From Ascidiella aspersa (lineage: Eukaryota), in contig OZ004612.1 of NCBI GenBank assembly GCA_963924565.1, forward strand, positions 28,582,001-28,646,000: a stretch of 64,000 bases of DNA. The letters are read 5' to 3'. The notes below the pieces were generated by a model. That model was given only the letters and a program-made list of their open reading frames with translations, was not told where the DNA came from and did not search any database. Made by a program: the position numbers and the translations under genes. Within the stretch, counting starts at the first letter, position 1. Every line of letters starts with the position of its first letter. Below are positions 808 to 48,800 of this stretch, piece by piece.

Positions 808-3800
808 GTGAGTATAGGAAAAGATTGTGAGATTGATTTTAAGCGTTAAATTTCTGCAGTTATATAAGTGGGATAAGGGCCGTTTTGCCTATGACGCAAC
901 ACAAACAGAATTTCATTTTTTATCTAAATTAATAAAAATAAAATTGAATTAAATTATGGTAAAATATTTATCATTGAAAATGGAACAAATGTGATCTGAA
1001 TATATGAAAACCCTTATAAAACCCTGATACGTAAACCAAAGGTATAAACTATAGTCTGGAGTTCTTAAGTGTCAATAGTATAGTATTTTAACTGTCAACA
1101 GAACTTTATCAAAAAAACAACAATTATTTCAATAAAAATTAATAAAAGTCAATAAAAACCCATTGAAACATTTGTTTAATCTTCCTACCCAGATGTTGTG
1201 TAAGGAGCTGAACCAAAAGAAAGAGGAATTCAGTGAATTGAGCAGCTGCCACCAGACTCTACCTCTCAGTCTGAGCGCAACAGAGCGCGAGAAGCTCCAT
1301 AGTGACGTCACAGACATCCAGGCGTTGTTCCGTCGCGCGCAATCGACCGCGAACGATAAGACGAACGCGCTGAACCATGCAATCGGCAGGAGGAAGGACC
1401 TGTGGGCTACGTCACAACAGGTAGACTGTTACGCAACAAAGGGAATTGTTACGGCTAATTTTGTTGTTTCCTTTTGAATTTGAAATTTCACGTGGCAAAA
1501 TATGTAAAATCATCTTAGATTAATGCCTTTTTTGTCTAATTCAAAAGCTGTAAATGCATTTTGCCCCTACATACAAAACAAATTAAAATTTATGTAATTT
1601 TTGGGCTTAACCTCATCAAAGTTGGTCGTTTATGGGATGTTTATAAAATAACTAGCTATAAAGAGTTTCAAATTCAATCTAAAAGTTACTGCTCTCTTTT
1701 TGAGGCCATTTTTTTCTTTCTTTACAGCGAGGCGAGTTTTATTATATTGTTGTGTTTTTATTGCAGGCTCTTGCATGGCTTGAGCATATCAAAGAAACGC
1801 TGGAAAAGTACAAGACGTTCCCGCTTCATCCTGATGCAGTGGCTAAACTTATACAAGAACACAGGGTACGATTGAGGGATTGCCAGTATTGCAGTTTTCA
1901 TAATATATACTTTTAATATGATTGAGACATCGTGTGATATAACTTTTAACAATATTAGTTTGCCATAAATGCGTTTTCGGTCCAAACTACGTTAGGTTTA
2001 AAAAAGGCATACGTCATTGTAGGAGTTCCCTTCTGAGCCTGCATAGCTCAGTTGGTAGAGCGACGGTCCCGGCTTGACCGGAGGTCGTGAGTTCGAACCT
2101 CACTGCAGGCTAGTTGTTTTTCTAGTCTGCCCTGCTTGCATCATAGATCAATAGACTCGGTGAGTCTGCGATGGCTTTCGGTGTACTTATTGTAGGAGAT
2201 GTTGTTTTTCAAATGGATTTCCAAAGGACTTTACAAAGAGAACATTTAATTTAGATTTTTGTTGTTTTTTTAGTTTAGGTTTGTCCCATTAACATTTTGT
2301 ATTTGAGGTTTGTCCCCAAAACATCTGATTTATGTAAACCCTATTTATGAAATTAAGTTTAAAGGTGGTTTAAACAAAACTTTTATTCCAGGTCTACTCT
2401 TTAAACTATGTTATTTCAAGATTTTTTTTGCTTAGTTGTTTAGGCGTTCTACATTTAAGCAGTAAGACACAAGTTTAGACTTAAAACCGAAAATAGAATT
2501 CTAAAATTGCGTTTCAAAATGTTCAGGTTGTCCCTTGAAAAGCGCTTTTGTAATGTCGAAGCTCTTTTAAAACATAACCAGTTTTCCAAACTTTTGTTGT
2601 TCTTTGTTTTAGGTTTGTCCCATAAAGTTATGATTTTTATTAAATACTATTTCCAAATGTATTTTTCAGGCGCTTTACAAGGAGATCGTCCGACACAAAG
2701 TCACAGTCGACGAGGTGATTGCAACCGGCATCCAGATCATCTACGAGGGCAAACCGGACAGCGTAAGCGTGCGAGGCAAGTTATCAGGTATAACCCCACA
2801 CTTTATTATGCCGTCATCACTGCTGACGTAGACGTGACGTGACGTAGCCGTGACGTGGTGGAAGCGTAGAAGTCGCTGCGACTTTTCTTCGTTTTTGTTG
2901 TGACCGTGGTGAAGGGTGTGGTAAATCTTTGTTTAGTTGTAGATTTTTTTAAATGTCCCCAGTAAGACCAAACTAAGTCCAAAATGTGGCAACGGAAAGT
3001 CATTTTGTTTTGATGTTAAAAAAATAAAATAACTGAATTTGAATTAAAACACTTATGGTGCTCATAGGTGTAAAGTATATTTATCTTAATATCTAAATAA
3101 AGTTCTTGACTCTTAATTCTACTTAGTTTGGTCTTTATTACTGAGTAAAAGAAACGAAAAATCAGTTTGTTTTAATGTTGAGATTACATTATTTCGAAAT
3201 AAGATATGACGATGCTCTCACAGATGTATGTTTCTTCTTTAAATCTAAATAAACTGATTTTCGGCTTTTACGTTTTCTACTTAGTTTGATCTTGTTCACT
3301 TGATGTACAACCTAAATCTTTGTTTCAAGCAGGTTTTTTCAATCATTCCATTCAAACAAAACTGTAGAATTTACCTTCCATTTGTTACAGCTTTATATTT
3401 CACTTAATGTCGTTTTGTTTCACAATGTTGCTTTGGTTTAGTGTTGCTTGTACTTTTTGTTGCGTTTTTGTGTTGTCAAGTTTCTTGTAGCTCTGTTTTG
3501 GTGTTTATACTGTATCACACATAGTTGCCTGAATATCAACTGAAAAGTTTGATACAAAAAGTAGAATATATCATTTTTCCGAGACAGAAACTTTCAATTT
3601 TTTTTTACTTTTGCGATAGTAATCGTAAAGGTTAAAAAGTTGGAATTAAGTTGCGCAGTTTTATTAAATTTTGTCATACCGTCTTTGATAAAATAGATAA
3701 CTTTTAATTTTTATTTAAATCAAAAAACAAATAATATAAGGGCTTTTGGCCAGTAAACAACGCCCTTATATTCTAAACATCCAGTAAAATAAAGTTTATA

Positions 3801-6800
3801 TATTCCAACATTTTTTACTGAACCCTTTCTACCAAAAAAAGTATCCCAATTAACGTCTACATTACTGATCGCATCGGACAGGCCTCGAAGATAGCTATGT
3901 CGAAGTGGATGAACTGTGGCGAATTAAACTGGATGAGCTTCAGCGTTTACTGGCAGACCGTGAGTTGTTTCATGCCGATGTAGATCACTGCTTACGTTGG
4001 CTGAAGGAGGCTGATATCGTGACCTTCCCAGAGGTCAACCTCGCCGCATCGCTGCCTGACCTTGAAACTCACCTTGGCCGATACGAGGTCGGTGAATGTA
4101 AAAAGTTTGCATGTCGTTGTTTGATCCGTTTTACATCGAAATTTACGATATTTCTATCGTCATAAATTGCTTCGTTTTTTTGTGAAAGGTTTTCATAACT
4201 TTACGTGGATATAAACATATAACCTTGGGCTATACCGAATCAGTACAAAGTGTGACAGTTTGTGCCATTTGTTTTTACGGATTTTACAGAATGACTTGGT
4301 TTTGTGTTAAAATATATTGCCCAGTTTATTGTGATGTCTATCATATCTTAAACTAAAATAAAGAATTCGGAAAATTGCTACGAATCCATACATCCTTTAA
4401 AATTAACAAAATATGTTCTTTTTTCTGTAAATTCAATAAATTTTTCTAGCACAGCTGGTTGCAATTTACCAAGAAATATAATATAATTAAAGCACAGCAC
4501 ATATGAGACCAAATTCTACCTTCTCTCACCTTAAGAAAAGTCGAGTGCTACATTAGAGGAGCACAAATGTCATCGCTCTTTATAAGGTAGTACACGATAT
4601 ATTGCTTTTCAGGCGATATTAAGCGAGTCCGTGAAATATCGCGACCTCGTATGTAAAGTTTGCGAGAAAGCGCAGGAAATTCTGCCGCAACTTTCCGACG
4701 TCGACCAGAGTCTGCTCACCGATAAAATGAAGAACATAAAGGATCAGTTCGAGCAGTAAGTCAAACTCAACTTAGAAAAACCCTGGATATGTTGTGATTT
4801 CATTCCAAATTCTAAACCTAAGTTGCATAAACTTAAAAATATATATAATTTGTTAAAGTCAATTCTGCCAAGTAACTGAACACCCTCATACAATCCTAGG
4901 ACGTTACCGATTTTCTGTTTACTACAACATTAATTGATACCCCATTTCTTAAGCGGGACTTTACATTTAAAATGTATAAGACTATTCAAAATTTACATTT
5001 CTTAAAATTATCATCGGTTTTTTTGGCAATAGTTTTCGTAAATTTCCCTACTAGATCAAGTAACTAAATTGGCAATGCTTGCATGAAATACTATTATTTA
5101 AGTTATTTGTGTAACGTCCTTAATAGCCTTATTTCGTGTAGCCAGTGGTTTAATTGCACTTAAAGTGACTTTTAACAAAATGAAATGCTGCTTTCCATGT
5201 TTGACAAAACCAACTAAAAATGCTGCTTTTCCATGATCAAATTATTTTGGTTTTTCTGTTTCGCTTCTGAATATATTGCTCACATAGGGATAATTTGTGG
5301 TTCAATAAACCAAATAATGAAGGCACAATGGCAAAAATAGTCCAACATAAAATGCAACGTATATAAACTGTTGCTTCCAAGCATGGTAATATAAATCAAA
5401 AACAGCTCTTCTGGTAATTTTAATTTTTTACCAACGTTTCGGCAACCTATGCAAGTCGCCTTCGTCAGGGTGAATAACACCAAACGCTCGTACAATAAAT
5501 AGAAAACACACAAAGGAAAAAAGCAGAAATCGGTGTCATTCACCCTGACGAAGGCTACTTGCATAGGTTGCCGAAACGTTGGTTAAGAATAGCAATTACC
5601 AGAGGAGCTGTTTGGATTTAAATAAAATTCAACGTGTTACATTTTTCAACCAAAATACCACTGTCTCCTACGTTCAACAATTTTTGCTTCTAGCATTAAG
5701 TAATGACTTGCAATTGCCTTTTAGTGTTTGCAAGTTCGCCGAGGACAAGTCTGATCAGATGCGAGAGATGATGTCATCGCGGAGGGAGTATATCCACTCG
5801 TTGGAACAGCTCGAGGATTACTTGGGTGTTGGTCAAACTATGCTCAGGGAACTAGATGATATGAGCACTGGACATACCGCTGGTCAAGCAAGGACATTAC
5901 TGCTCAAAGCTGAGGTAATGGTTCTGGATGTTTTTACGAATTTATCTCTTATGATAAATTCAAAGTTTGGCGATAAACAAATGCCAGCATATTTGTTACG
6001 TAATATTCGAACGTTACTACACATATAATATTCACTTGATAATCGGTTTTAAATTAAGTCTGTTACAATTTAATATATATTTTGAAAGTTGACAGCATGG
6101 CAGTTACATAATCTTCGCATGCAACTACAAATATGATATCAAATGTTTGGTATCTGCCTGAGCTAAAATTTATTTTTTACTTCAGTCCAGTACACTATAA
6201 TAAACATTTTTATCAACAAAAAAGCTAATGTAAGAAGTTACTTTGATTAAGCTTTAACGGATTTATTTATACCGTGTCAAAACCAAAATAACCCGAAACA
6301 TACAAATATTAAAAAAATATTGTTTACCTATAGATTAACAACGTATTAACTTCAAAGTTTCGTACGTTCTTTATTTATATGCAAACATAAGCCAAACTCT
6401 CTCAATGTCCGAAGCGCGAACAAAGTCGCCAAACATATTAAATATAAAGCCACTTGTTTACGATAAAAAACTGAAGGTTAATTATTTTATCCAACGTTTA
6501 ACACTTATTTTCGTTCGCAGAAAATCCAGCATTCGATCTCGGATCGCAGACCTAGTCTTGAGAAGATTGAAAAGATGAGAGATTGCCTCAGGGGATCCGG
6601 GCAACCATGGCAACCAGAGGAACTCCTTAAAGGTGGGACGTTATATTATGGTCGTTATGATAAATAAACTATCGTCAGCAGAAAATATGCGTAATTTAAG
6701 AATAATTGCCAGTGTTACAGAAATATTTTTCAGACGTAACAGAACCATTGGTGAATACTATAAAAAAAAATTTCGCTAAACAAAAAATATTGTATTGGTC

Positions 6801-9800: not shown

Positions 9801-12800
9801 CTTATATATATTGGGGTTGTTCGAAAAGCACTTTTTTGTCAAATTTTAGCGGGAACCCCCCTAGAGTTTATTCGTCTAAAACACAACAAGCCCCACCAGG
9901 TTGCATCGAAAATCCCCACAAACCAATTCTGAGCACGTTTGGTTCAGTTTAACTGTGCTACGTCAATTTTTAGTTTGATACGTGATACGTTGACAAAGTG
10001 TAAGGACATTTCCAATAAAATACGATTAGTAGGTTTATCAAATAACATGTCTGTTTTTCAATACACCAATTTACAATATGTTGAAATATGTTATATAAAT
10101 CCAAAAAAGCTAAACGAATCCCAAATCCTCTTTAGGTCGTATCGCAGCAACATTTTTTATGTTTTACTAAATTGTCTCGTAACTGTATGAAAACTCTTTA
10201 AAAAATCGCAAACAGCAACGTATCGTTAACTCACAAACCCCCCTGTGAACGTCAAGAGCGTTTGTTGGAGGCGCTACAATTGAACATAGAACCAGTTTCT
10301 AGCCTTCCATATCCACTTACAACATCCTACTCTTATGTACGCCTGTTTTCGCCCTGTTGCCTCCTATTGTGACTTAACAAGCACGCCATTGTTGCGCAGG
10401 AGCGTTTGTTGGAGGCGCTCGAGTCCCGTCAGCGTTACGCGGATTGCATGAGTCGAGTAACGAGTAAGCTGGGTAGTGCGAGTGCAGAGTTGCAACTACT
10501 TGAAGCCGACAGCAACCCTGAGCACGCGAGAGATCTACTTGAGCAACATCAGGTATGCACTATAAAGATATTTGTTTTATTAAATGGGATCTAGTTGTTG
10601 GTGTTGGTTTGGGTATAATTTACCCTGCTTTTCGTTATTAAAATACTAAACTGAGTAATTGATAATAAATTGCAAAGCCAAAAAAGTCGAGTTGATCGAC
10701 ATCATCTTGATTAAGTCGTTTCGATACAACTTGTATCATCTTCAGTTAATGTGGCACATTAACCTTTTTGGCTTAGCAAAATATTATCAACTACATTGCA
10801 GATCCGTGCATAGTACCTAATTAATTGATATTATATTGATTTTTGTTAGTAACAATTTTTTTTATAGTAATTTTGTTGTTACAATTTTAGGCCATTGGTT
10901 TTATCAAAAAATAATTTAAAAAGTTTGTATTTTTTAGAAAATTTGTAAGATGAAAGTAATTATTTTTTTCATCCATTTGTTTTGCAATCTTGTTTAACAG
11001 ATAATCCACTTTGTAAAAATGAATATGGGTATAATTTACCAAGTTGCTTAAAAAATTGTGAATAAAAACCACAACTACTTAATTTGGGTGCCGAAATAGT
11101 TTTTTAATTTGAAACCAATTGCTTTTAAAAGATTTAAAACAGTTAGATTTTCTATTTTGAATTATTTTTATTAATTCACAATTTTGTAGCTGCAATTCCA
11201 TTTTAATTTGTGCACATAATTGTAATTTATCATGCCACCGATTCAGGCCGACTACATGATCCACCAATATGAGGTAACTCAGCATGCATACATCGGTGTA
11301 TGTTAGTCCTATAGTATTCCGTTGCATGCTTTGAAAATAGCTTAGTTGTTAGAATGTAAGGTCATCATATCTAATGTAAACTATTACTTGTCGTCTATCG
11401 CAACCTTTCCTAAAATTACTATAAACAGATGTCATTAAAATGTATCAGTTTAGAAATAATGTTAAATCCAGTTTTCTGGTGCAATTAGTTTCACAAAGTT
11501 GCCCAAAAAGAAATTGGAAAACTCAATATTTTACTATTATATCGCTACAGAGTATTGCGTCATGAAACGTCAATCATTAGGTGGTAGTTTGAGTGTATGT
11601 ATTTTGACTTTATTCCTTTAAAGGTTTAGCGTTTTCAGAATAATGTCGTAATGCCGCGTAAGTTGCATGAACCCTATCTTTTACATTACTTTCTCAGTTT
11701 AGCATCACAGTTTGCTTCCTTTTTCTGAATATTATTTTACCATCTGACTTATATTTTGAGCATGATCGTTGGTTGTACGGTGCATGCGCAACTTTATGTT
11801 TGTGAATTTGAGTTCGCCTAACCGTCCGTTGAAACTGGACAGGTAAATTTGCAATAATTGGGGTAATGAAACTGTATGTTATAAAATGAAGAATACCAAA
11901 GAAACTTATCACAAAAATCTCAATACTTATATTCTAAGCTTCATTTTTTATTTCATATTTATATTTTATAATGCATTGTTACACTGATTTCACCAATTTG
12001 AATCAACTTCAGCTGGAATCAACTTGTACCAAGTTAAACCAGTTGAAATAAATTTATACCAGTTTAAGTCATTTTGATTTGATTTATTCCAAATTTGAAC
12101 CAATTTGTACCAATTATTGAAATCGGTTAAACGAAATTATATAACCTAAAAATACAATGTCGGAATCTACTTATAACAATTTGAACTAGTTTGATTAAAT
12201 TTATATCAGTTTAAATTATTTGTAATAAGACTTTTCGGTTTAAACCAATATAAGCCAATCTAAACCAACCTGTACCAATTTTAGTAGATGTCAACCAGTT
12301 TTAACCAACTTTACCAATTTAAATCAGTTTAATCGATACGATAACCAATGTAAAGCAATTTAATCGACACGACAAACGACAACTTTCCAGGCGCTTTTTA
12401 CGACCGAGGGAGAAATCCTTCATTACGTCGATGAACTTGAGGAGGTTGCGAATGACCTTGACAGCATGTCGGGAACAATTGGACTCACTAAGACGGCACG
12501 TGACACACTCTCTACCGCCGTTGGCGGCGTGAGGGAGCGTGCCGAGAATCTGCTAGATGCCGCTAAAGAGATACACAACAGTTTGCAGGTTGGTTGCCAG
12601 TGATCGAAATATTAGCAAATTTCTCAAAACAATTATAGGAAACCACTACGCACATTTTAAAATTAAAATATAAAATAATTTGTTCTCTTAACTGGGGTAA
12701 AATTTCTTTCAACACTAGTATAGCTGAGATTAAAGTTTTAGTTTTTAAAATGTAGGCTTTAATCGAATATTTAAAAACAGTTTGTGCCTTAAATTTAACA

Positions 12801-15800: not shown

Positions 15801-18800
15801 CCATATTTCATCTTGTGAAAAACAAAATGGAAATTTTTAAAGGGAATAAGTCAACGTTTCCTTGAAACATTAAACCTAATACTTTACAGCAACATAAGGA
15901 ATACAATAATAATAATTTAGCCATTCATTCCTAGTAATAGTACCCTTATTATATGTTTTCTTTCCTGCTAATGATCGGCATTGTAGAAAACGATCAGAAA
16001 AACATTAACAACTTTATGCGCTTTGATTTACTTTTTGTTAAATTGTCTTAAAAAGGAAAAATATTAGTGATTGGACGACGGGTGTCAACAAACCTCCACA
16101 AGCCTTTACATAATTTTCTCAAATTCATTGCTCTATACGTTTTCTCTACACCAATCAGGGCGACTCTTCACGCGCTCCAGAATGACGTAGCATCTGTGAC
16201 GCGTCGGTTGAGTACAGTGCACGACGCCGCACACACACTCACGGGGAGGCTGGACTCGCCTGTTAAAGGGTCGGTGCTGGATAAGGCTGAGGACATTGAA
16301 GATAGATGCCACAAGTAAGATGTTTATAGTGGATTTTCTTGGTTGATTTATAGTTTATAAGTTTGAGACTAACAACATCGATGCTAGATGCCACAAGTAC
16401 GATACGTTGATTTAAGCAGTATCCCTCTGCTAGAGGAGTTGTAATGTTCTCAAGTAAGGCGTTATTCTGATCTACCACTTAGTTATTTTTAGTTGCAAGC
16501 TCACGCTTATGCGTTTAACTACCTACAATTTATTCTTGCATTCGTCCCCACTTATAAATTCACTAAAACAACCTAGGTTTTGATAATAAATTGCAAAGCC
16601 AAAGAGGTCGAGTAGATCAACAGCATCTTGATTAGAATTTCGATACGAACTGGTATTATCTTCAGTTTATGTGACTGAGAAACAAATCAAAGCATCTTGT
16701 ATAAAAGCATAGGTTTTACTGGTAAAAAGTCGAGAGATTTTCCAGATAATAGCTTAAGAATCAACGCTGTAAACAATTTCTTCCAGACTTTCAGAAGCTA
16801 CTATTGTTCGACTTGCCGATGTGAAGGCCGAGATGCAATCACGCGAAACGTTGAACGCCGAACTTCGCGACATGTTGGTGTGGGTTGAAGATATGAGGGA
16901 GAATGCTGACCGCACACTGGACATTGCACCAGCACCTGGACATGTACAGGACAAACTAGACGCACTCAGACAGGTAAAAGCTGTGTGCAAAGAGGTTTCT
17001 ATCGAGGGTTATACATCAAGTGTAAACATGGTAACAAGGGATAGACAACTATGAAGAAAGCTATTTCTTGTTCAGGACAAAAACTGAAATAGTTAAAATT
17101 AATTTTTAATTGTTGGCCATGTTTGTTTGGCATTTTGGTATTGTATGTTCTGGTTCTTTTAAGCCGATTTTGGAAAGTTTTTAAACTTTCGTGAATTCTG
17201 GCTAAACTCAAAATGTATACAAAGAGTTTATGAAGAGAGGATTATCATTTTTCTCGCCAAACTATTGTTTTCTCTTTTCTGGCTGACTCATTAATGTTGT
17301 GTTTTTTGTGATATTAATTTAGTTTTCAAGTTAAAAAAAATAAATGTATCGATTCTGGAAGCTTTAAGGCGATTTTATAAAGCGTTAATTATGCTGTGCC
17401 TGTTTACATCGCGCAATTTATAAGTTTGACACTTAAAATAAAAACACTGGTCTGTAATCTTATTTAAAATGTTTCAATAAATCACATACCCACACTCAGG
17501 AATTATTAGGGTGGAGTGATTGAAACAAAATAGTTTAAAGAATAAAGCCGAATATCTTAATTCGTTTTAATGTCCATCCATTGCATATGATCCAACTCCA
17601 CAATGTTTCTTCCACAACAGTTGAAGGACCAGCTTTCAAACAAAGAAGGTCACTTCAACAAGATATCTGAGGAGCAGAGGCAGAAGTACCTCCAGAACTA
17701 CGCAATCCTCCCCGTTGAACTCTCCTCCACCATCGCAAAGATCAGGATTGCTCTGGCAGCTCTTCACCAAGAGCTGAGGAACAAAGAGGATGTGAGTTGA
17801 CGAAACTTCACTTACTTTAAAAGCTTAAAACAATGTCTATATCTGTTATATTTTGACTACAAGGATAATTTATTTAATTTTTTGCTTGTTTCTAACAAAT
17901 CAAAAAGCTGTTTTAAAATATATCCCAGTAATATAAAACTGAAGTGTAAGCATTTTTTTCATTTTTAACGTCTTGCCTTACAGACTCACTAAAACGCTTG
18001 TATTTTATAAACTTGGACAAAATTCCAATGTTATGACAGCTACCAATTTCGTTCCACCCCAAAATACCTAGTTTTTATCTCCAATTATAACATACTTAAA
18101 TGTAGGTTAAACGCATCCTAGTTAGGCTTTAATTATTATAAAATACTTATTTTAGCTTCAAGGTCGAATAAAAATTTTAATTTATTTTCTAATAAACAAA
18201 ATGAGCTTGAAAATAACGAGGAAATGACGAACTTGCCTTACACATAATTGCATCTTTATCTAGGAGCTGGAGTCGGCTCGCAACTTGCGTGAGGATTACC
18301 ACGATGAGCTGATGCAGATCTCCTCTCTCCTCACCGACACAGAAATGCAGCTCACTGAAGATCCACAAGATCAGGTTTCATCTAAAGACACACAAAGGGT
18401 GAGGATGCTTATGCTTGTAGAGCATGAATTTTTCTTGAAAGAATTTTGAACTAATTAATTTGAAGTTGATCGAATTTCGTCCTAAATTTTCCAATTCGGT
18501 TTAGATTACTTTTAAATTCTCGCCCCAATATTTCGATCCTAGAAAGATTATAAAATCAACTTTTTTAATCCGATATCCAAAGGGTAAGGCGGTTTGTGTA
18601 AGTCGGAACAATTTTAGGGACTAATTTTCGACTTATATTTTCGATTCTGGATGAAATGTTATACTAAATGTTTCCAATTCTGGATAAAAATACTTTGTCG
18701 CCTTCTAATCAATTTTAAACCGCGAATGTTTTTTTCACTCTGTAAGCTAACATGGCGAAATATTGTTTATTACACAGATGCTTAGTCGGTCACAATACCC

Positions 18801-27800: not shown

Positions 27801-30800
27801 ATCACTACGATTAATTAATCAACCAATTTGTTCAACCTTTCAACCATGTATAATTAAAATAACTTTCGTAGAACTTGATTTAACATGTTAGATCATATCG
27901 ATTTATTATTTTAGGGCATAATTGCCACATATTGTCAATATTTTTGCAGAACGTTTTGACACATTTTGGAGAAGCAATCCCGTCTATGAGGTACTCGGTA
28001 CGTCACCTCATTTGCATAACAAGCTTGCATTACCTATGACGTAATCGTGACGCAACAATCCTAAATTGCCTGACGTCACATAACGCTTTCAGATTGCAAA
28101 TTTAAAGCATTGCGGTGCCATTGGTATCGGGGAAATCATTGCGTTATCAAAATTAAGTGTGACGTCACACTTTTACTGTTTTGCGTCATCAAGTTAATTG
28201 TGACGTCACATTTTTACTGTTATGCGTCATGAAATTAAGTGTGACGTCACGTTTTACTGCTATGCGTCATCAAATTAAGTGTGACGTCACATTTTTACTG
28301 TTATGCATCATCAAATTAAGTGTGACGTCACATTTTTACTGTTATGCATTATCAAGTTAAGTGTGACGTCACGTTTTACTGTTATGCGTCATTAAATTAA
28401 TTGTGACGTCACATTTTACTGCTAAGCGTCATTATATTAGCTATGACGTCATATTTTACTCTCATTACGTCATCCCATTAACTAAAACTAACAGGAACGC
28501 CATATCGCGAAACGCGTGACGTCACTCTGACGCCACAATCGTTCCGATCTCGCACGTCATCGACGTCATCAAACGCGGGCAGTGTGATGTCATCAGCGAT
28601 CCCTGCCACGTTCCGTTCCATGGGCTTGACGTCATCAAGGACACGTCATAGTTCCGGTCTGCCGAGTGTGAAGCGGTTGTTTGGTGCTGGTGTGTGAAAC
28701 ATAACAGTGATAGTTTGTTCTAACTGGCTTTAAACTGTTTGTTCTCTTAATCACCACTTTATTCATGCTAAAATTTTTTAACATTGAAATGATTTTCCAA
28801 AAAATTGTAAAAAAGAGTAGTGGACCAAACAATGAACACTTGGCTTTACACTAGCAGAGTCCTTTTCTCGATATTAAGTAAAGTTAGTTTGTTGTACAAG
28901 GTCTCATTTTAAGCCAGAGTAAAACAAACTTTTTGAATTTACCAATAGTTTTCTGTCACTTTTAAACTTCCAATCAACACTGAATAAAAATCTATTTTAG
29001 AAATATCTTGTCACCAAAGTTAATTAAATGCATCCACGCTTTTCGCACCCTGCTTTTCGCACGCTTCTTACACCCCTGTCAACGTGGGCAACTTGATTTA
29101 TTTATATTTTCAAAGTGGAAATTAAGTTCAAAGGATTACTGGAAACTTAAATTCGCACTACCAAACTACAAATTATTTTTCCACTTGCTTGCGCACACGA
29201 AAATTTTTCTGTTTTTATTTGTTACACGATAAATTAATTGTACTTATGCTTTTAGCAAAGCGCCTACACTCATTTGATCATACGTATGAACAAAATCACT
29301 TGATTTATCATTATTCATTACAGTGTGTGTGTGTGTTATATTTTATCTGCACGTGTGTCTTAACAAACTAACACCTTCTGTTTTTCCTGTTTGATTGCGT
29401 TTTCTTGTTAACTGGTAAATGCTGCTAACTATATTCATTTAAACGTTAGCTAAATATTGCATGTTGTAAAAGTTGTCAAAAAGTGTCAACTTCTGCAACA
29501 AACAGTGTATTTTTCATTAGTAACCTTGATTTAACTAATCTTTGGTTTTGACAACTGCTAAATTTGTTGTGCATGAGTTTTGTTTTATTTATTTTATTAT
29601 ATTGGCGATTATTTAGTATTGTCTAACGGACGCGATATGTGTTGTTTGTAAGAGTTTAATGAAACCGTCATTAAAAAATAATCACCAAGTAATTGCATGT
29701 ACAGTAAATAAATTGCACGCCATTTACGTTTAAGTTGCATGTTACATTGTATAATAATAATTACACACCAAGTAATCACTTTAAATGTGTCAAAAACTGT
29801 ATATCTTGTGCCTACAGCTGCTATCATTGTTTTTCTTTTTATCCTGAGCTTCACAATACCGTGCCTTTTTTCCGCAGACAAGTCGTCGGTTCTCTCGCAA
29901 GCCGAGGAGCAGCGGGACGCCCTCTTGCGGGAGCTCGAGTCTGTGAAAGGTGACCTTGAGAACTTGCAGCGGGAAACGCAGGACAGGGAAAGGTCACTGC
30001 AGGTAACAATTATGAAATTGTGTTGCATTTCCATTATTAAAGAAGCAAATTAAAAGTTTTATTAGACAAACATACAAGATTACTGCAGGTGAAATTCATA
30101 AAATTCGGTTACTTTCATTGTTAACTTAATTTTAACACATGAAAAACCCACTGCAGGTGAAAATATTACTCTGTAGGTGAAAATATTACATTTCTATGTT
30201 TCAACTTTTAATAATTTAAAAAAGTTACTGCAGATAAAAATAATAAAATTCGGATACATTTTTGTCGTCAATAAAGCAAATTCAATGTTATTAGACAAAC
30301 ATACATAGAAATATTTATTAAAAAAGACTTATTTTTTCCCTATTAATCAACAGCGTACAAAATAAAAGAAAGGTTCAAAAAAATTTTTTGGTGTAACGCG
30401 AGAACTTTTATTGCTTAAATAAGTTGTTTAAAAAAGATTAAAAATTAATTTTTGTTTTGTGATATTTTTATTGTTGAAATATGTCATTACAAGCTCATGT
30501 TATTTTCCCAAATCGATTTTTTTTTACTTAAACAATCCTTCTTGTAATGTTTCGGCTTTGGATGTTTTTTAGAATGAACTGAACACAAAACTGGACGAAT
30601 CGTTGTTAGAACAAGAATCACGAGCTCAAAAAATGAAAGATTGGCTTGAATCTTTAGAGGTATGTCAAAAAAAGGCGATATTTGTTTTAAACCTTTCAAA
30701 ATAACTAATTCCTTTTATCTATGTTTATACACGTTTCTCCTAAAGAGCATAACTGATTAATTTTAAAACAGAACTTAAAAACCGTTTATTTTACTAACTT

Positions 30801-42800: not shown

Positions 42801-45800
42801 TATCGACCTTAAGCGGGAATACGATGAGAAGGTTTTGGAGACGGACACTCGAGCCGACTCACTGAGATCAAGGGTCGCGCAAGTTGTTGGCGGGGATTCC
42901 GTGATCGAAAGCCCGCGGGATTTGCTCATGAAGGCTGAGGTAGGTAGTCCGACATTTTTGGAAATCAATACGCGAAACAGAATGAATATTAAGCCCATAT
43001 AGAAGTAGGTATTTTGTAAATGTTTGGAATAATTAAATCAATGTGGAGCCCAATAAAGAATTCGAAGCTTTCAAATTGCTACCTATACTCCTCTGTGTGG
43101 GCTATATATTCTACAACAGGGGTTCTTAAACTTGTTTTACCACGGACCTCTAATCTTTTTTTAGCTTTGCATGGACCCCGGTACGCAAGAAATGCTCCAG
43201 AATGACGTCACAATACAAATAGATTTCATAACTCTGTTTATTTCGGTCCGAAAAATGTGAAAGTTAAATGGAGTCTAACTATACATTCAGTGCAAAACCG
43301 TTTAATTTTTAATTAAAGTGTTTTCTTTGAAAAATTAATAACTTTTTAAGTGTACATTAGTTTTTTAATTAGGCCTTCATGGACCCCCTAAAACTAGTTC
43401 ACGGACCCCCAAGGGGTCCATGGACCCCAGTTTAAGAACCCCTGTTCTACAATCTCCAGCAATTATGCTCCAAAAATCTATATAATATTTCTGTTCTTTT
43501 CCATTGTTTCCAGGACGTTAATCTAAAGCCATGTATCTCGGTATCAACGCGATATGTTTTGTTTATTTTACAACTTTGGGTCAGCATTAGTTAAGTTGAT
43601 ATAATAAAACAAGGCGCTAAATAAAATATTTATTCCTCGTTAACCTTAATTTATTTCGGTGTTAGCGTGGAATTAGTTCAATACGATTTTTTAGGCATCC
43701 TAAAAAATATTTGATAAGGTTGTTGTCCAACAAAACTTATAAAATTTATCTGATATTTACTTAATAAAAAAATCAATTCCTAATATTTTTAAAAAAAGGT
43801 TGTGATGGGCTCGCAAAATTTAATGTTTACTGCATTTTTAAAAAGTGGAATAATATAGCTTGATAATAAATTGCATTGTTGACATTAACTGAAGATGATA
43901 CAAGCTCGTATCGAAACGTCTTAATCAAGATGATGTCGATCTACTCAATTTTGGCTTTGCAATTTATCATCAAGCTACATTACCGATCCGTGCATAGTGT
44001 ACCCAAATGCAATAATGTAACTTGTTTAACCTTTTATTACCTATTTAATTACAGAACACGCGTTACAGTTTAACCCCAAAAAACGAACCTTCAATTTCCC
44101 TATAATTACTAACTCACACCACTCCCATTTTTTGTTTGTTGTCAGGGTTTGGAGGAAACGTGTGAAAAGTTGCGGGTCGCCCTCACCACATTGGAAGGCA
44201 TTTGCTCGCGCGCTGAACAAGCTAAGCAAACACAACTGGCCGCCTCCATGGCTGCCAGCAACGCAAGGTAAAACAGAATTGGTTGTACCAATGCTTTAAG
44301 GTTAATATGGAAAAGCAGCATTTAGATATATACTATTATGAACGCAAGCTAGAAATACAGTTTACAGTCTTACGTTGTTCTCTGTTGATATAGGATAGGT
44401 TCTTTTTTGCACAACAATTCATCATTTTTAATTTTATCCAAGTTTTTAATTTATCCGTTTTGCTGGTATTCGAGCAACGCAAGGTAGATAGAAAAATTTG
44501 TTTATACGAGTTTATTCTGGATTATTTACGGTTTTAATGCTTTCAAGGCATTTCAGGAATCTGGTATTCAAGTGCTATTGATATTTACTTGAAAATGTCT
44601 AAAATACAGTTTGCAGTTTCGACGTGATAAAAAACAAATTTTCATAAACTAGAATTTTTGCAGAATTTGTTGCCTTGTCTATAAGCGCAAAGTTCCATAT
44701 AAAATTTGTGATTTAAAAAAAGAAATTTATTTAGTTATGTTTTTACTGCTTTGTGAGTGATACAAGTAATTCTGTATATTATATAATATTTAGTTTGAAA
44801 ATTTAGACAAGCCTATTTTCCGTGGTTTAGTTTGAGTAAATTTGCTTACAATTTAGACTTTCTGTTATTTTGGTAACAGAAAATTAAACTATACTTTATT
44901 CCAGTGTAGCTTATAAAAAATAAACTTGACTTGGTCAAAGTGTTTCAACGATTTAATAAAACTTTTTTATCTTTTGTTTATTTTAACAAAATTTGATTTA
45001 CATTTTAGTTATTACATGTTTCGTGTTATTTATCATTGGCGCAAATTCCCGTCCAACAGAATTTCCGCCAAAGTAGTTCGAATTATCCGCACTGCCAGAG
45101 TGGCGGTAGAGAGCATGCGCGAGTTGTCGACTATATCGGATGAGCTGAACGATAAGATCGGGTACATGGATGCCTGGATGAGCGAAGCGCAAAACACCGG
45201 AAAAGTAGAAGACGCTGCAAAGGACAGAAGAAGCATAGAAGTGAGTTTAAGATGTAAAACGTATCATTTAATGAATAAACTGAGGCATTTCAAAATTAAG
45301 CCTGATACTATTACAGCCACCATCATCGACTTAGTTTTAAAAAAGTTAACGATATTGAATTACTTTTAGTATAACATTTGTGATTTGTAAACAAAAATGT
45401 TCAAAGAATGCCTTAATATACATAATATGCTGTTTTTTGTACATTTCGGGTTTGTACAGTCATTGCCCAAACTATGTTTTCTCTATTTACCTTTGCTCCT
45501 AAAAGTTGCTGTCATTGAAGCGTTATTCAAAACTTTATATTGATTAGGACTATCATTATATTTATGTAGATAAGACTTTTTTGTTATTATTTGCGTGGTG
45601 AGTAAAAAGATATGAAAATAATTTCTAAAATATTGCAAAAAATAAAAAAAATGAGGGAAAAACTCTATAACAATTTCTAAATGAAGTGCTTTGAAAAAAT
45701 TTTTATTGCAGAACGATTTTTAAATACAAATTTTTTTTCTTTTAGCTATTCATATTAATAAAATGCTATTTAATAATAAAAAAGAAAACAAACACTTTAC

Positions 45801-48800
45801 CGAAATGCACAACGTTCATTTTCAGACGAACCTGGAGGAATTACGCGCACAGCTTCAGGCTTTCAAAGCTTACTCCCACACTATGGATGACGTCAATCGA
45901 CTGGCTCACAAACTACCAATGACAGATCGACACGTCAGCAAAATACAGGCGCTCAATGAAAGATGGAAAGAATCAATTAAAAGCACGTGCAAGAAGTGAG
46001 TTCAGTCTATTACTTCACAATACGTATTTGCAACACTGCACAGGTAACAATTTATACCGAAGTAAACTGGTTTTAGAGGAATTTCGCTCACCGCTAAAAG
46101 TTCATTTTTACTCTCGTATAGATTTCACAAAGTTGTGCTAAAATTAAATTGCTGTGGCAAAATCTCATTCTTTTGGTAACTACAGATATAAACACACACA
46201 AAAAAACTTTTAACAACAACAAAACGTTGCCCAGTTGTATTTCTACAAAGTTCTTCGTTTTCAAAATATCAACGAGGTATAACGGTTGCTTTATCTAAAC
46301 ATTGGACGTTATGCGATATTAAATAGTTCTTAGGATGAGTGTTTTTGTTTGAACACTTTTTGTTACATTGGAAAATTCAATTTTGGGGTTACGTTACTTT
46401 TTTTCTTAGTTAAATTCTTAAAATTTAAGCCAAAAATACTTAATAGAACAGTTGTTTGACATAAGAATTGCAGTAAAAAATATTCAGTAAGGTCATTGGT
46501 TTGTTTAGAAAACACAATATATTTTTAATCAATAAGCCTTAGGCAAGAAACCCCTACATTTCATTCCAGGTTCGGTGTCCATCTGACGACTCTCTTGCCC
46601 CACCTAGAGTTTAAGGACAAGTGTGAGCGTTGGATTTTATTTGTGACGCAAGCGGAACGTGGACTGGTGGCCGACCTGCCATGCTCCTACAGGGGATTGC
46701 TCGAACAAGCAAGGTAATCTAATATAAAGAAAGTTAAAAAAAAAAGCCAGCGCTATGATGGAACGCAAAATTGTGAAGCATTCCTTATTTTTTAAAAACA
46801 AAATATCCAGATAATGTGGTGTGAAACTTACATGATAGCCTTGATATCTTTACCAATTACTTGATATGGCTAAAAGACCCCATGAAAAATATTATGAGCA
46901 TGCTAGATAAAAACAAGTTAAATAATCTTCTTTCTGACATGTGTTACAATTCAGGCTAAATTCTTATTTTAGAAAACGTATTTCAGCGAATTGTTGACCA
47001 ATTTACAAAATAAGAGCTTAACAATAATCTCTGTTTTACAATCTGGATAAAATAGTATATCAAAACAACTTTAACTAGTATACAGAAAAATCTAACCGCT
47101 TTTGAGTTTGACTGATAAAACCTATATTAAAACAACTTTAGTTTAACAAGGTTTTCTGTTCTAGGTCCTATGACCTTTTCATCGTCGAGAGCGGCGCGCG
47201 ACAGCAATTGTTACGTCATATTATTGACGAGGGTGAACAAATGCTCAAGGAAAATGTCGTCGACGATAGGTAAGAAATGCCAGGACGCAAACTGAAACTT
47301 GTGTTGTCCATTATTATCAAAACAAAGCCAAGTGGTAGTATCGCCCCTCGTCCGATACCAGGGTAGTATCTGTGCCGGTCCTACGCTAAATTATTTGTAA
47401 AAAATGAATTTCTGAATTAATAATACTTTAAATGGTTAGATGTACTTCCTACTAAAATCATAATAAATTGAATAAAAGCAGTGCGAACAAATTTATTAAT
47501 AAAAATTTTGTTAATATAAATAACCTTACAACTCAAAAAGCAATAAATAATAACTACAAGAACTAATGGTAATAACGAAAAAATCAAGCCATATTTTCTA
47601 TGATGTTTTTATGCTTAAAATATCAATATTTAATAAAATCTCACGCTTATAAAAGTTCTCAAACGATTTTTTTAATTTTTTGTTAATTTGTTTTTATTTT
47701 AAATTTTTTAAATCAATCTCCTTTTTTGGCAGAGTTGAATTCCGCAACAAACTTTCCTCCCTCGACAAACAATGGAGCAGGGTTCTCCGCAGTGCGCGAG
47801 AGCGCAAGTCAGTCGTCGACGCTGCCATAGCAACCTGGCTAGACTACAAGCAGCACAGCGACCTTGTGACTTCATCGACTCGTCTGTGTGACGTAGAGAT
47901 GACGAAGTTCGACAGGGAACTTCCGGTGGTTGGACTTGCGCCAACAACCCTCGCTGAAATAATGGTGAGTGGAAACATAACTTTTACTTTGTTATCATGT
48001 AAAAAACAAAATTAATTATTATTCACTTCAATTTAAATTTTTTAAATTTCAAACTTATTAATTTTTCGGGAATTAAAGTGCTTTGTTGCATTTGACTGAA
48101 AACAACCTATGGGTTATTTTAGCTTCTAATAATAACATAAAACAACACCCAACAAAAGTATATTCAGACGACAAACACGCTCAATGTGTAAAAGTAATAT
48201 GTCGAAATCTAAGTACATTTTAATTATAGTAAAAATTGTTGTCATAGGTTTAAGTCGACTTTTTTATTGAATTCAGAGCAACAATACTTAACACACTTTG
48301 CTTCAAAGTTGGTAAATACGCGTTATATCAGGTGCTAATCCCAAGAATTGCAGTTGAGCAAAACTAAACAACAAAGATTATCGTTTTTCAGGAATGTTTA
48401 ACAGAAAAATTTAGGCCAATTCAGGACATACGAAAATAGCGGCTTAGAAGCCCTTACGGCACTAAACAACATTAACGTGACCTTTAAGGAGCTTGAGTCT
48501 TCAACCGACGCTGGAATCTGCTCTGCGATGTTGGATTCCGGTCACCGCGTGATGTCGCTAGTGAGGGGAGATTTTCACGCTCGACTGAAGAAGGAAATTT
48601 CCACTTGTCACAACGACTTCCTAAACGCCAACCACGCCGTTAAGGACAAGAGGTTGAATAAAGAACTTTGTATTAAATATTATATGATTAGTTTTAACAT
48701 TAATATGAGATGCTGTTCTCAAGCGTTGAAAAGCAAAGTTTTGTACAGCCGTTTTTTTAATTTTGTATTATATTTCAATTTTAATTTTGATTTATTCATT

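Follow-up and report, generated by a model that had tools for sequence, protein, structure and literature searches.

The palindromic insertion and its host intron

The window analysed here, a stretch of 64,000 nucleotides from Ascidiella aspersa, contains a host intron of 969 nt on the plus strand (4756-5724, GT..AG), and a palindromic insertion lies about 100 nt upstream of its acceptor. The inverted repeat consists of two ungapped arms of 82 nt (5400-5481 and 5532-5613) that are 90% complementary and 50 nt apart; with the flanks of this block each arm amounts to about 92 nt. On folding, the pairing reaches approximately 5392-5620 (-133.5 kcal/mol, z = -21.3) and none of 200 shuffled sequences was equally stable. 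The original prediction of a palindrome at 5392-5620 therefore holds for the pairing but not for the insertion itself, whose borders are 5361 and 5621 (261 bases), because the left arm bears a tail of about 28 nt. A 14-bp target-site duplication (TSD) stands on either side, the left copy (5347-5360, plus strand) being identical at 13 of 14 positions to the right one (5622-5635, plus strand).

A genome search yielded 1320 candidates, of which 40 were scored. Copies aligned on the ribozyme have two alternative end points, separated by about 28 nt and referred to below as the long and the short end. The left arm of the window copy extends to the long end at 5361, and the right arm stops at the short end, at 5621. 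In the long arm (5361-5530, minus strand) we recognise the terminal 3' UTR/pLTR sequence of a Penelope-like element (PLE), and the short arm (5530-5621, plus strand) is an inverted second copy of the same element end without the tail. They cover reference positions 2054-2225 and 2101-2196, respectively, and are joined head-to-head with an overlap of about 1 nt (gap -1). The tail (5361-5389, minus strand) is confined to the long arm and comprises the initial 8 codons of the element's ORF, with the ATG at 5384 and the reading MLGSNSLY. What had been described as a 50-nt spacer (5482-5530, minus strand) turned out to be element 3' UTR that continues the left arm and by which the long arm extends beyond the short one in the 5' direction, since query positions 1-145 have matches of about 90% in many genomic copies; it was also visible when the sequences upstream were aligned.

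The host resembles a giant gene of the spectrin-repeat type and may be nesprin-like. This lead comes from the look-alikes of one host exon, which include spectrin-repeat clusters at 0.91-0.92; Pfam returned one weak unrelated match only for five host exon frames, and a homologue search with one host exon scored none of its 26 candidates. A contig of sequencing run X4 spans 5725-5914, with loose ends that correspond to the exons on either side, one with its end at 4755 and the other with its start near 6521; as the contig is spliced, it was taken to be RNA-derived, the library type not being on record. In the RNA run X6, of which about 6% was read, 58 reads matched at a likeness of 93% and 3 reached 97%, none fitting in full. 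An accumulation of RNA ends was absent from the listed signals, with RNA coverage that was not specific to the locus. An A>G difference at 5380 was considered as RNA editing and rejected, since the DNA reads carry the variant too (208/220), which makes it a paralogue difference. Contigs of run X1 bridge both insertion junctions and demonstrate that the insertion is present in those data, though not that it is fixed; an empty-site joint was absent among the joints listed, the depth of X5 being about 5. The host gene also contains a tRNA-like sequence at 2037-2111 (plus strand; Rfam RF00005, 55 bits), which may represent a tRNA gene or, alternatively, a SINE head.

Each arm carries one hammerhead core of the form CUGACGA-A...GAAACGUU, beginning at 5545 on the plus strand and at 5468 on the minus strand; one ribozyme per strand, with an ACC/GGU stem I, had been correctly recognised before. 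A loose core pattern gave 3 matches in the window against 0.05 expected by chance. The minimal type-I hammerhead of the long arm (5430-5471, minus strand) is antisense to the host gene, with the GUU triplet at 5435-5433 and a predicted cut between 5433 and 5432, and that of the short arm (5542-5583, plus strand) is sense to the host pre-mRNA, with GUU at 5578-5580. Stem I has 3 bp in both arms. In stem II, which is of 8 bp, the minus arm shows a 4-nt loop and the plus arm a single U-U mismatch. An extra A follows A9 in both arms and GAAACGUU has no stem III of its own. The defining features of minimal hammerheads (min-HHRs) are present, namely the CUGANGA and GAAA core, the extra base after A9, helices I and II, the palindromic 15.2-16.2 and a UH site. 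The extra base, the ACGU and the opposite-strand pairing, formerly read as a special design, belong already to the description of PLE min-HHRs: the available text of PMC4209133 reports, in 2014, an additional base separating 9 from 10.1 and a palindrome at 15.2-16.2, as well as dual min-HHRs on opposite strands 100-700 bp apart. Those ribozymes are likewise of type I, with a helix II of 7-8 bp, a short helix I and G10.1-C11.1, helix I being of 4-5 bp in the Schistosoma min-HHRs compared to 3 bp here.

Among 14 distinct hammerhead rows, 90.9% of the cells pair, and one compensatory stem II pair, from G-C to A-U, reflects a single event between two sister families. One of 500 shuffles attained the covariation score; because the rows are related, this control is weak. 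An Rfam scan of the window retrieved none of its hammerhead models at E <= 1. The Rfam matches to MIR5048, far below the gathering score and reflecting the long hairpin only, and to mir-8489, a generic hairpin under the gathering score, were both discarded. Elsewhere in the window, a short palindrome at 28348-28426 has TGACGTCA in both arms and a weak mir-8489 match, and a U6-like 3' fragment lies at 46747-46792 under the gathering score.

The parent element and a second family

By its sequence, the insertion is best identified as a 5'-truncated PLE of the Penelope/Poseidon type with an inverted pLTR. Its long arm is truncated about 45 nt past the stop codon of the ORF and shares 88% identity over 170 nt with the 3' end of the ORF-bearing copy L044, 89% with that of L043, and 92% over 115 nt with the 5' pLTR of L054, which is near full length. 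Longer copies extend upstream into an ORF that encodes a reverse transcriptase (RT; YVDD, DKG) followed by a GIY-YIG domain with CxxC..H..H. In L043 and L044 the motifs read PADKG and GVVYSIPCADC..YIGETGR..KEH..SYH, with two Cys between GIY and YIG. The CCHH and DKG features are those given for EN+ PLEs in PMC8557442, and no CX2-5CxxC zinc-finger linker was found by eye upstream of GVVY in the 377-aa frame of L043. The Penelope/Poseidon group, as delimited in the available part of PMC8557442, fits because DKG, YVDD and CCHH are present and the zinc-finger linker is absent, an assignment to the clade by motifs.

The 377-aa frame of L032 retrieved 18 longer proteins (best E 1.8e-88); the best relatives are 660-920 aa long and PF00078 was found in 11 of the 18. 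The homologue P0005 scores above the Pfam cut-offs for both RVT_1 and GIY-YIG, whereas the family's own fragments fall below the gathering cut-off (GIY-YIG E 5.8e-4, RVT_1 E 0.015). L054 shows, in order, a truncated pLTR with hammerhead (3319), the ATG (3403), RT and EN, and a tblastn comparison with P0001 covers aa 1-791, the ORF being broken by stops and an insertion. There, the stretch matching the tail continues into the ORF as MPGSNSLYIEF..., and in L043 the equivalent hammerhead/pLTR sequence comes after the stop codon. Intact ORFs were absent in the loci examined, the longest open frame of the window-copy family being 377 aa. At L054:5417-6109 the GIY-YIG region is split by an insertion of about 690 bp that resembles a DNA MITE, its terminal inverted repeats being GC-rich and a short duplication being present.

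Exact matches to a 20-mer of the ribozyme number 405 in the genome, compared to 0 for the reversed control. A sister family, with about 73% ORF identity, shares the ORF start and the hammerhead, the latter bearing a single compensatory exchange in stem II; the cleavage triplet of the sister family is GUC instead of the GUU of the window copy. One sister-family copy, L167:327-3909, is a partial tandem in which two frames, of 357 and 522 aa, are open, and a further frame of 424 aa at 4024-5298 of the same locus has no match to P0001. Hammerhead cores of other types near the examined loci (L156:1432, minus strand; L156 18, plus strand; L002:1206, minus strand) suggest further PLE families in the genome. 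The literature search returned no paper joining hammerhead, Penelope and ascidian, and the family is possibly uncatalogued.

Inverted pLTRs, one-sided tails, an ORF start within the pLTR and TSDs are all described for PLEs in PMC3846280 and PMC8557442. According to the accessible part of PMC3846280, Pen2a_Av of Adineta vaga resembles the window copy in its head-to-head inverted copy, its tail at one end and its TSD. As in the window-copy family, pLTR and tail of EN+ PLEs hold the first ORF codons, and the GIY-YIG at the C-terminus has CCHH (PMC8557442). The tail is about 28 nt here compared to 30-40 bp in the EN+ PLEs of these two reports, and the TSD is mostly 11-15 bp compared to 8-10 bp in the Adineta examples. 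The window copy lacks the whole ORF, and its family, with at least 405 exact matches, is far more abundant than elements of the Pen2a_Av type. In PAc, the Poseidon element of Anolis carolinensis, the tail in the ORF start likewise marks two RT start sites, the hammerhead lies in the pLTR just before them, and targets are AT-rich (PMC11167929). Its ATG is placed at stem II and its RT start sites 111-118 nt into the ORF by the same source, whereas in the window-copy family the ATG lies about 49 nt past the cut site, within the tail.

The window contains a second PLE family, called family A, with copies at 43882-43973 (plus strand, core at 43889) and 10659-10814 (minus strand, core at 10745) and a decayed one at 16580-16673 (minus strand). 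In the copy with its core at 10745, GAAACGAC replaces GAAACGUC, so that the conserved U16.1 is lost. The copy at 43889 is sense to the host gene and has an inverted end of only about 20 nt; other local hairpins are possible. BLASTN similarity between family A and the palindrome was not significant (best E 1.7). The genome search with family A gave 2304 candidates, with the same pattern of long and short ends. By tblastn, no ORF was detected in the first 20 family A loci, but a search from further upstream gave ORF matches in 11 of 15 loci. This ORF matches RVT_1 (E 2.3e-9) and is mostly 26-37% identical to that of the window-copy family, up to 52% in short stretches. Pfam did not detect GIY-YIG in the C-terminal frame of family A, and its probable presence is assigned from the motif and tblastn. 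As family A is linked to an RT-bearing ORF other than that of the window copy, the host gene has received insertions from two PLE families. The proposal that the two sets are unrelated is confirmed, as is their independence as retroelements; they are, by contrast, truncated ends of autonomous PLEs and not hammerhead mini-retroelement families.

Ends and junctions of the genomic copies

The first 100 of the 405 exact matches, on contigs C1 and C2, were merged to 89 loci, and then to 83 independent loci after collapsing into one the seven that share one TSD and long flanks. This sample favours young copies, as an exact 20-mer is required. Head-to-head pairs were found at 47 of the 83 loci: 39 long+short, 4 long+other, 2 long+long and 2 short+short. 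Long+short thus accounts for 39 of the 43 classed pairs (p = 1.6e-8 against 0.5), and 4 of the 43 break the rule. The other 36 loci have no inverted end in the DNA examined, which for 30 loci comprised flanks of 1.5 kb only.

Of the 39 long+short pairs, 19 have the tail on the 5'-shorter arm, 17 have it on the 5'-longer arm and 3 have arms that are equal, so that the shorter arm often has bases missing from the longer one. The pairs of 5' starts that define the junction are distinct in all 39. Junction gaps range from -23 to +15 nt in 42 of the 47 pairs, with overlaps of 1-7 nt being common, and both arms cover the full core in 18 of 47 only. The fold-back architecture that had been regarded as a design common to both hammerhead families is therefore not one, each palindrome having its own junction. 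Identity within pairs was 0.933 compared to 0.918 between pairs (32 pairs long enough; Wilcoxon p = 0.001). At the window locus a shared template gets no support, since the two arms are no more alike (0.891) than they are to other copies (median 0.903); the age of the window copy would explain its low arm identity.

Of the 53 pairs counted before collapsing, 43 are flanked by TSDs of at least 9 bp, as are 12 of 36 singles, compared to 6 of 150 swapped-flank controls. TSD length is variable, mostly 10-17 bp; arms measure between about 25 and more than 800 nt, and the 5'-truncation of the copies is graded, with the series reaching into the ORF. At L069:1431-1755 and L043:4280-6319 we found abutting, non-repeating inversions with overlaps of about 5 and 40 nt, in which the inverted piece begins where the direct piece ends.

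Two further arrangements were recorded. Seven loci (L078, L079, L083, L086, L088, L106 and L122) have identical arms, a single 12-bp TSD and kilobases of common flank. One TSD and such flanks mean one insertion that was amplified, which ruled out mobility of the palindrome as a unit as the source of these look-alikes; their carrier is a larger repeat with a period of about 1.5 kb on two contigs, and the PLE palindrome is its passenger. L019 has tails on both arms and the same sequence, inverted, in both flanks, which suggests a larger inverted duplication and not a normal insertion.

Origin and consequences of the inverted arms

Taken together, these results demonstrate that the insertion in the window is a truncated PLE end doubled head-to-head, with one tail, one TSD and a junction of its own. 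We consider it likely that this 5'-truncated insertion, with its ribozyme end present twice within a 14-bp TSD, arose in one integration via both nicked target strands. The RT-EN protein would nick the two target strands about 12-14 nt apart, and each 3'-OH would prime reverse transcription, one from a distal internal start site to yield the tailed arm and the other from a proximal site about 28 nt upstream to yield the untailed arm. Both cDNAs would end early, at 170 and 92 nt in the window copy, and be end-joined at their truncated ends. This twin priming is inferred from the geometry of the ends. In vitro, the Anolis PLE protein is reported to cleave and extend both strands and to start reverse transcription at two internal sites with the tail between them (PMC11167929). 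Those assays showed no strand difference in start site, which does not account for the strict long/short asymmetry.

In twin priming of L1 elements, two cDNAs made from opposite nicks are joined at their truncated ends within one TSD. The two segments of L1 inversions abut without a repeat. In the window-copy family, by contrast, both cDNAs usually begin at the element 3' end, which yields a palindrome, and the abutting arrangement was observed in L069 and L043 only. These two inversions point in the same direction as both-strand priming.

An alternative that we regard as unlikely is that the inverted arm is made by self-priming (fold-back) of a single cDNA or an antisense template, as proposed for the Penelope elements of Adineta (PMC3846280). 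The frequent junction overlaps of 1-7 nt and the slightly greater likeness of arms within pairs than between pairs agree with it. However, the shorter, tailed arm of 19 pairs cannot have been copied from the longer arm, because the tail is missing from the latter, and the junctions are all distinct instead of being fixed at a native palindrome. The 39 of 47 pairs that are long+short with different junctions favour both-strand priming over fold-back as well as over copying of a unit.

Such a unit, a palindromic, non-autonomous, retrozyme-like mini-retroelement with two ribozymes and a hairpin selected as silencer or dsRNA substrate, is still less probable. Non-autonomous retrozymes derived from PLEs are described in the accessible part of a preprint (bioRxiv 10.64898/2026.07.22.740005), the sense core is predicted to be buried by the hairpin and seven loci have identical arms; yet these seven are a single amplified insertion, as judged from their common TSD and flanks, and the remaining junctions are unique. 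The graded 5'-truncation into the ORF also argues against a unit, as does the coverage of the core by both arms in a minority of pairs only. Whereas retrozymes consist of direct repeats in tandem, the window insertion is one inverted pair; the direct repeats detected in 5000-6100, two 12-nt pairs, both lie outside the insertion. Mobility of the palindrome as a unit is thus largely refuted. That a DNA MITE acquired hammerhead-like words in its terminal inverted repeats by chance, a reading that inverted arms and a TSD might invite, is exceedingly improbable in view of the asymmetric, one-tailed arm ends, the variable TSD and arm lengths and the identity of the sequence with the 3' end of an RT-EN ORF. 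A TSD had been expected to expose the arms as MITE termini; it was found, yet with a PLE origin, and this sign misleads because PLE insertions carry TSDs as well.

The hairpin proposed to compete with the sense ribozyme is borne out by folding, since forcing the plus-strand hammerhead is predicted to cost 73 kcal/mol (67 for the minus strand), and in the whole-intron fold the core bases are predicted to be unpaired with a probability of at most 0.003. The long hairpin would accordingly be predicted to trap the sense ribozyme. The further suggestion of a built-in silencer is not supported, given that both arms cover the core in a minority of pairs and that an inverted end is missing from 36 of the 83 loci. 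Selection for silencing gets no support and the copy set gives no sign of arm lengths tuned to cover the core; the silencing hairpin appears to be a geometric by-product of PLE insertion. Nor is a silencer needed, because minimal hammerheads are described as inactive as monomers, with low activity as dimers (PMC4209133), and the PAc hammerhead as requiring the PAc protein (PMC11167929). Cleavage by hammerhead dimers is credited to Lunse et al. in the available text of PMC6765202. Head-to-head geometry places the antisense arm first in either transcript, and the window copy is predicted to be inert in host pre-mRNA because this arm is transcribed first and stem III needs a dimer partner. In the best explanation, the hammerheads are passengers of the pLTR.

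Returning to both-strand priming, we lean, with less assurance than for the window insertion itself, towards a general rule in which PLE integration is an obligatory two-ended priming, with a distal RT start on one strand and a proximal one on the other, and the palindrome is built anew at each site. No paper stating this for PLEs was found in a search of mainly open-access literature. If true, the tail would mark which strand primed where, the published self-priming proposal would be replaced, and the long/short rule together with the abutting inversions would be the genomic footprint of two-ended priming.

The locus in the window is itself ordinary, one of hundreds of PLE stubs and predicted to be inert. 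A palindrome with a TSD and a hammerhead in an animal intron is to be read as a PLE signature; it should not be mistaken for a MITE or a microRNA precursor, nor for a novel ribozyme switch. The part of wider value is solely the integration rule: the end statistics of the copy set provide a testable rule that links the two-site initiation seen in vitro to genomic structure, and it bears on how PLEs form their inverted pLTRs and one-sided tails.
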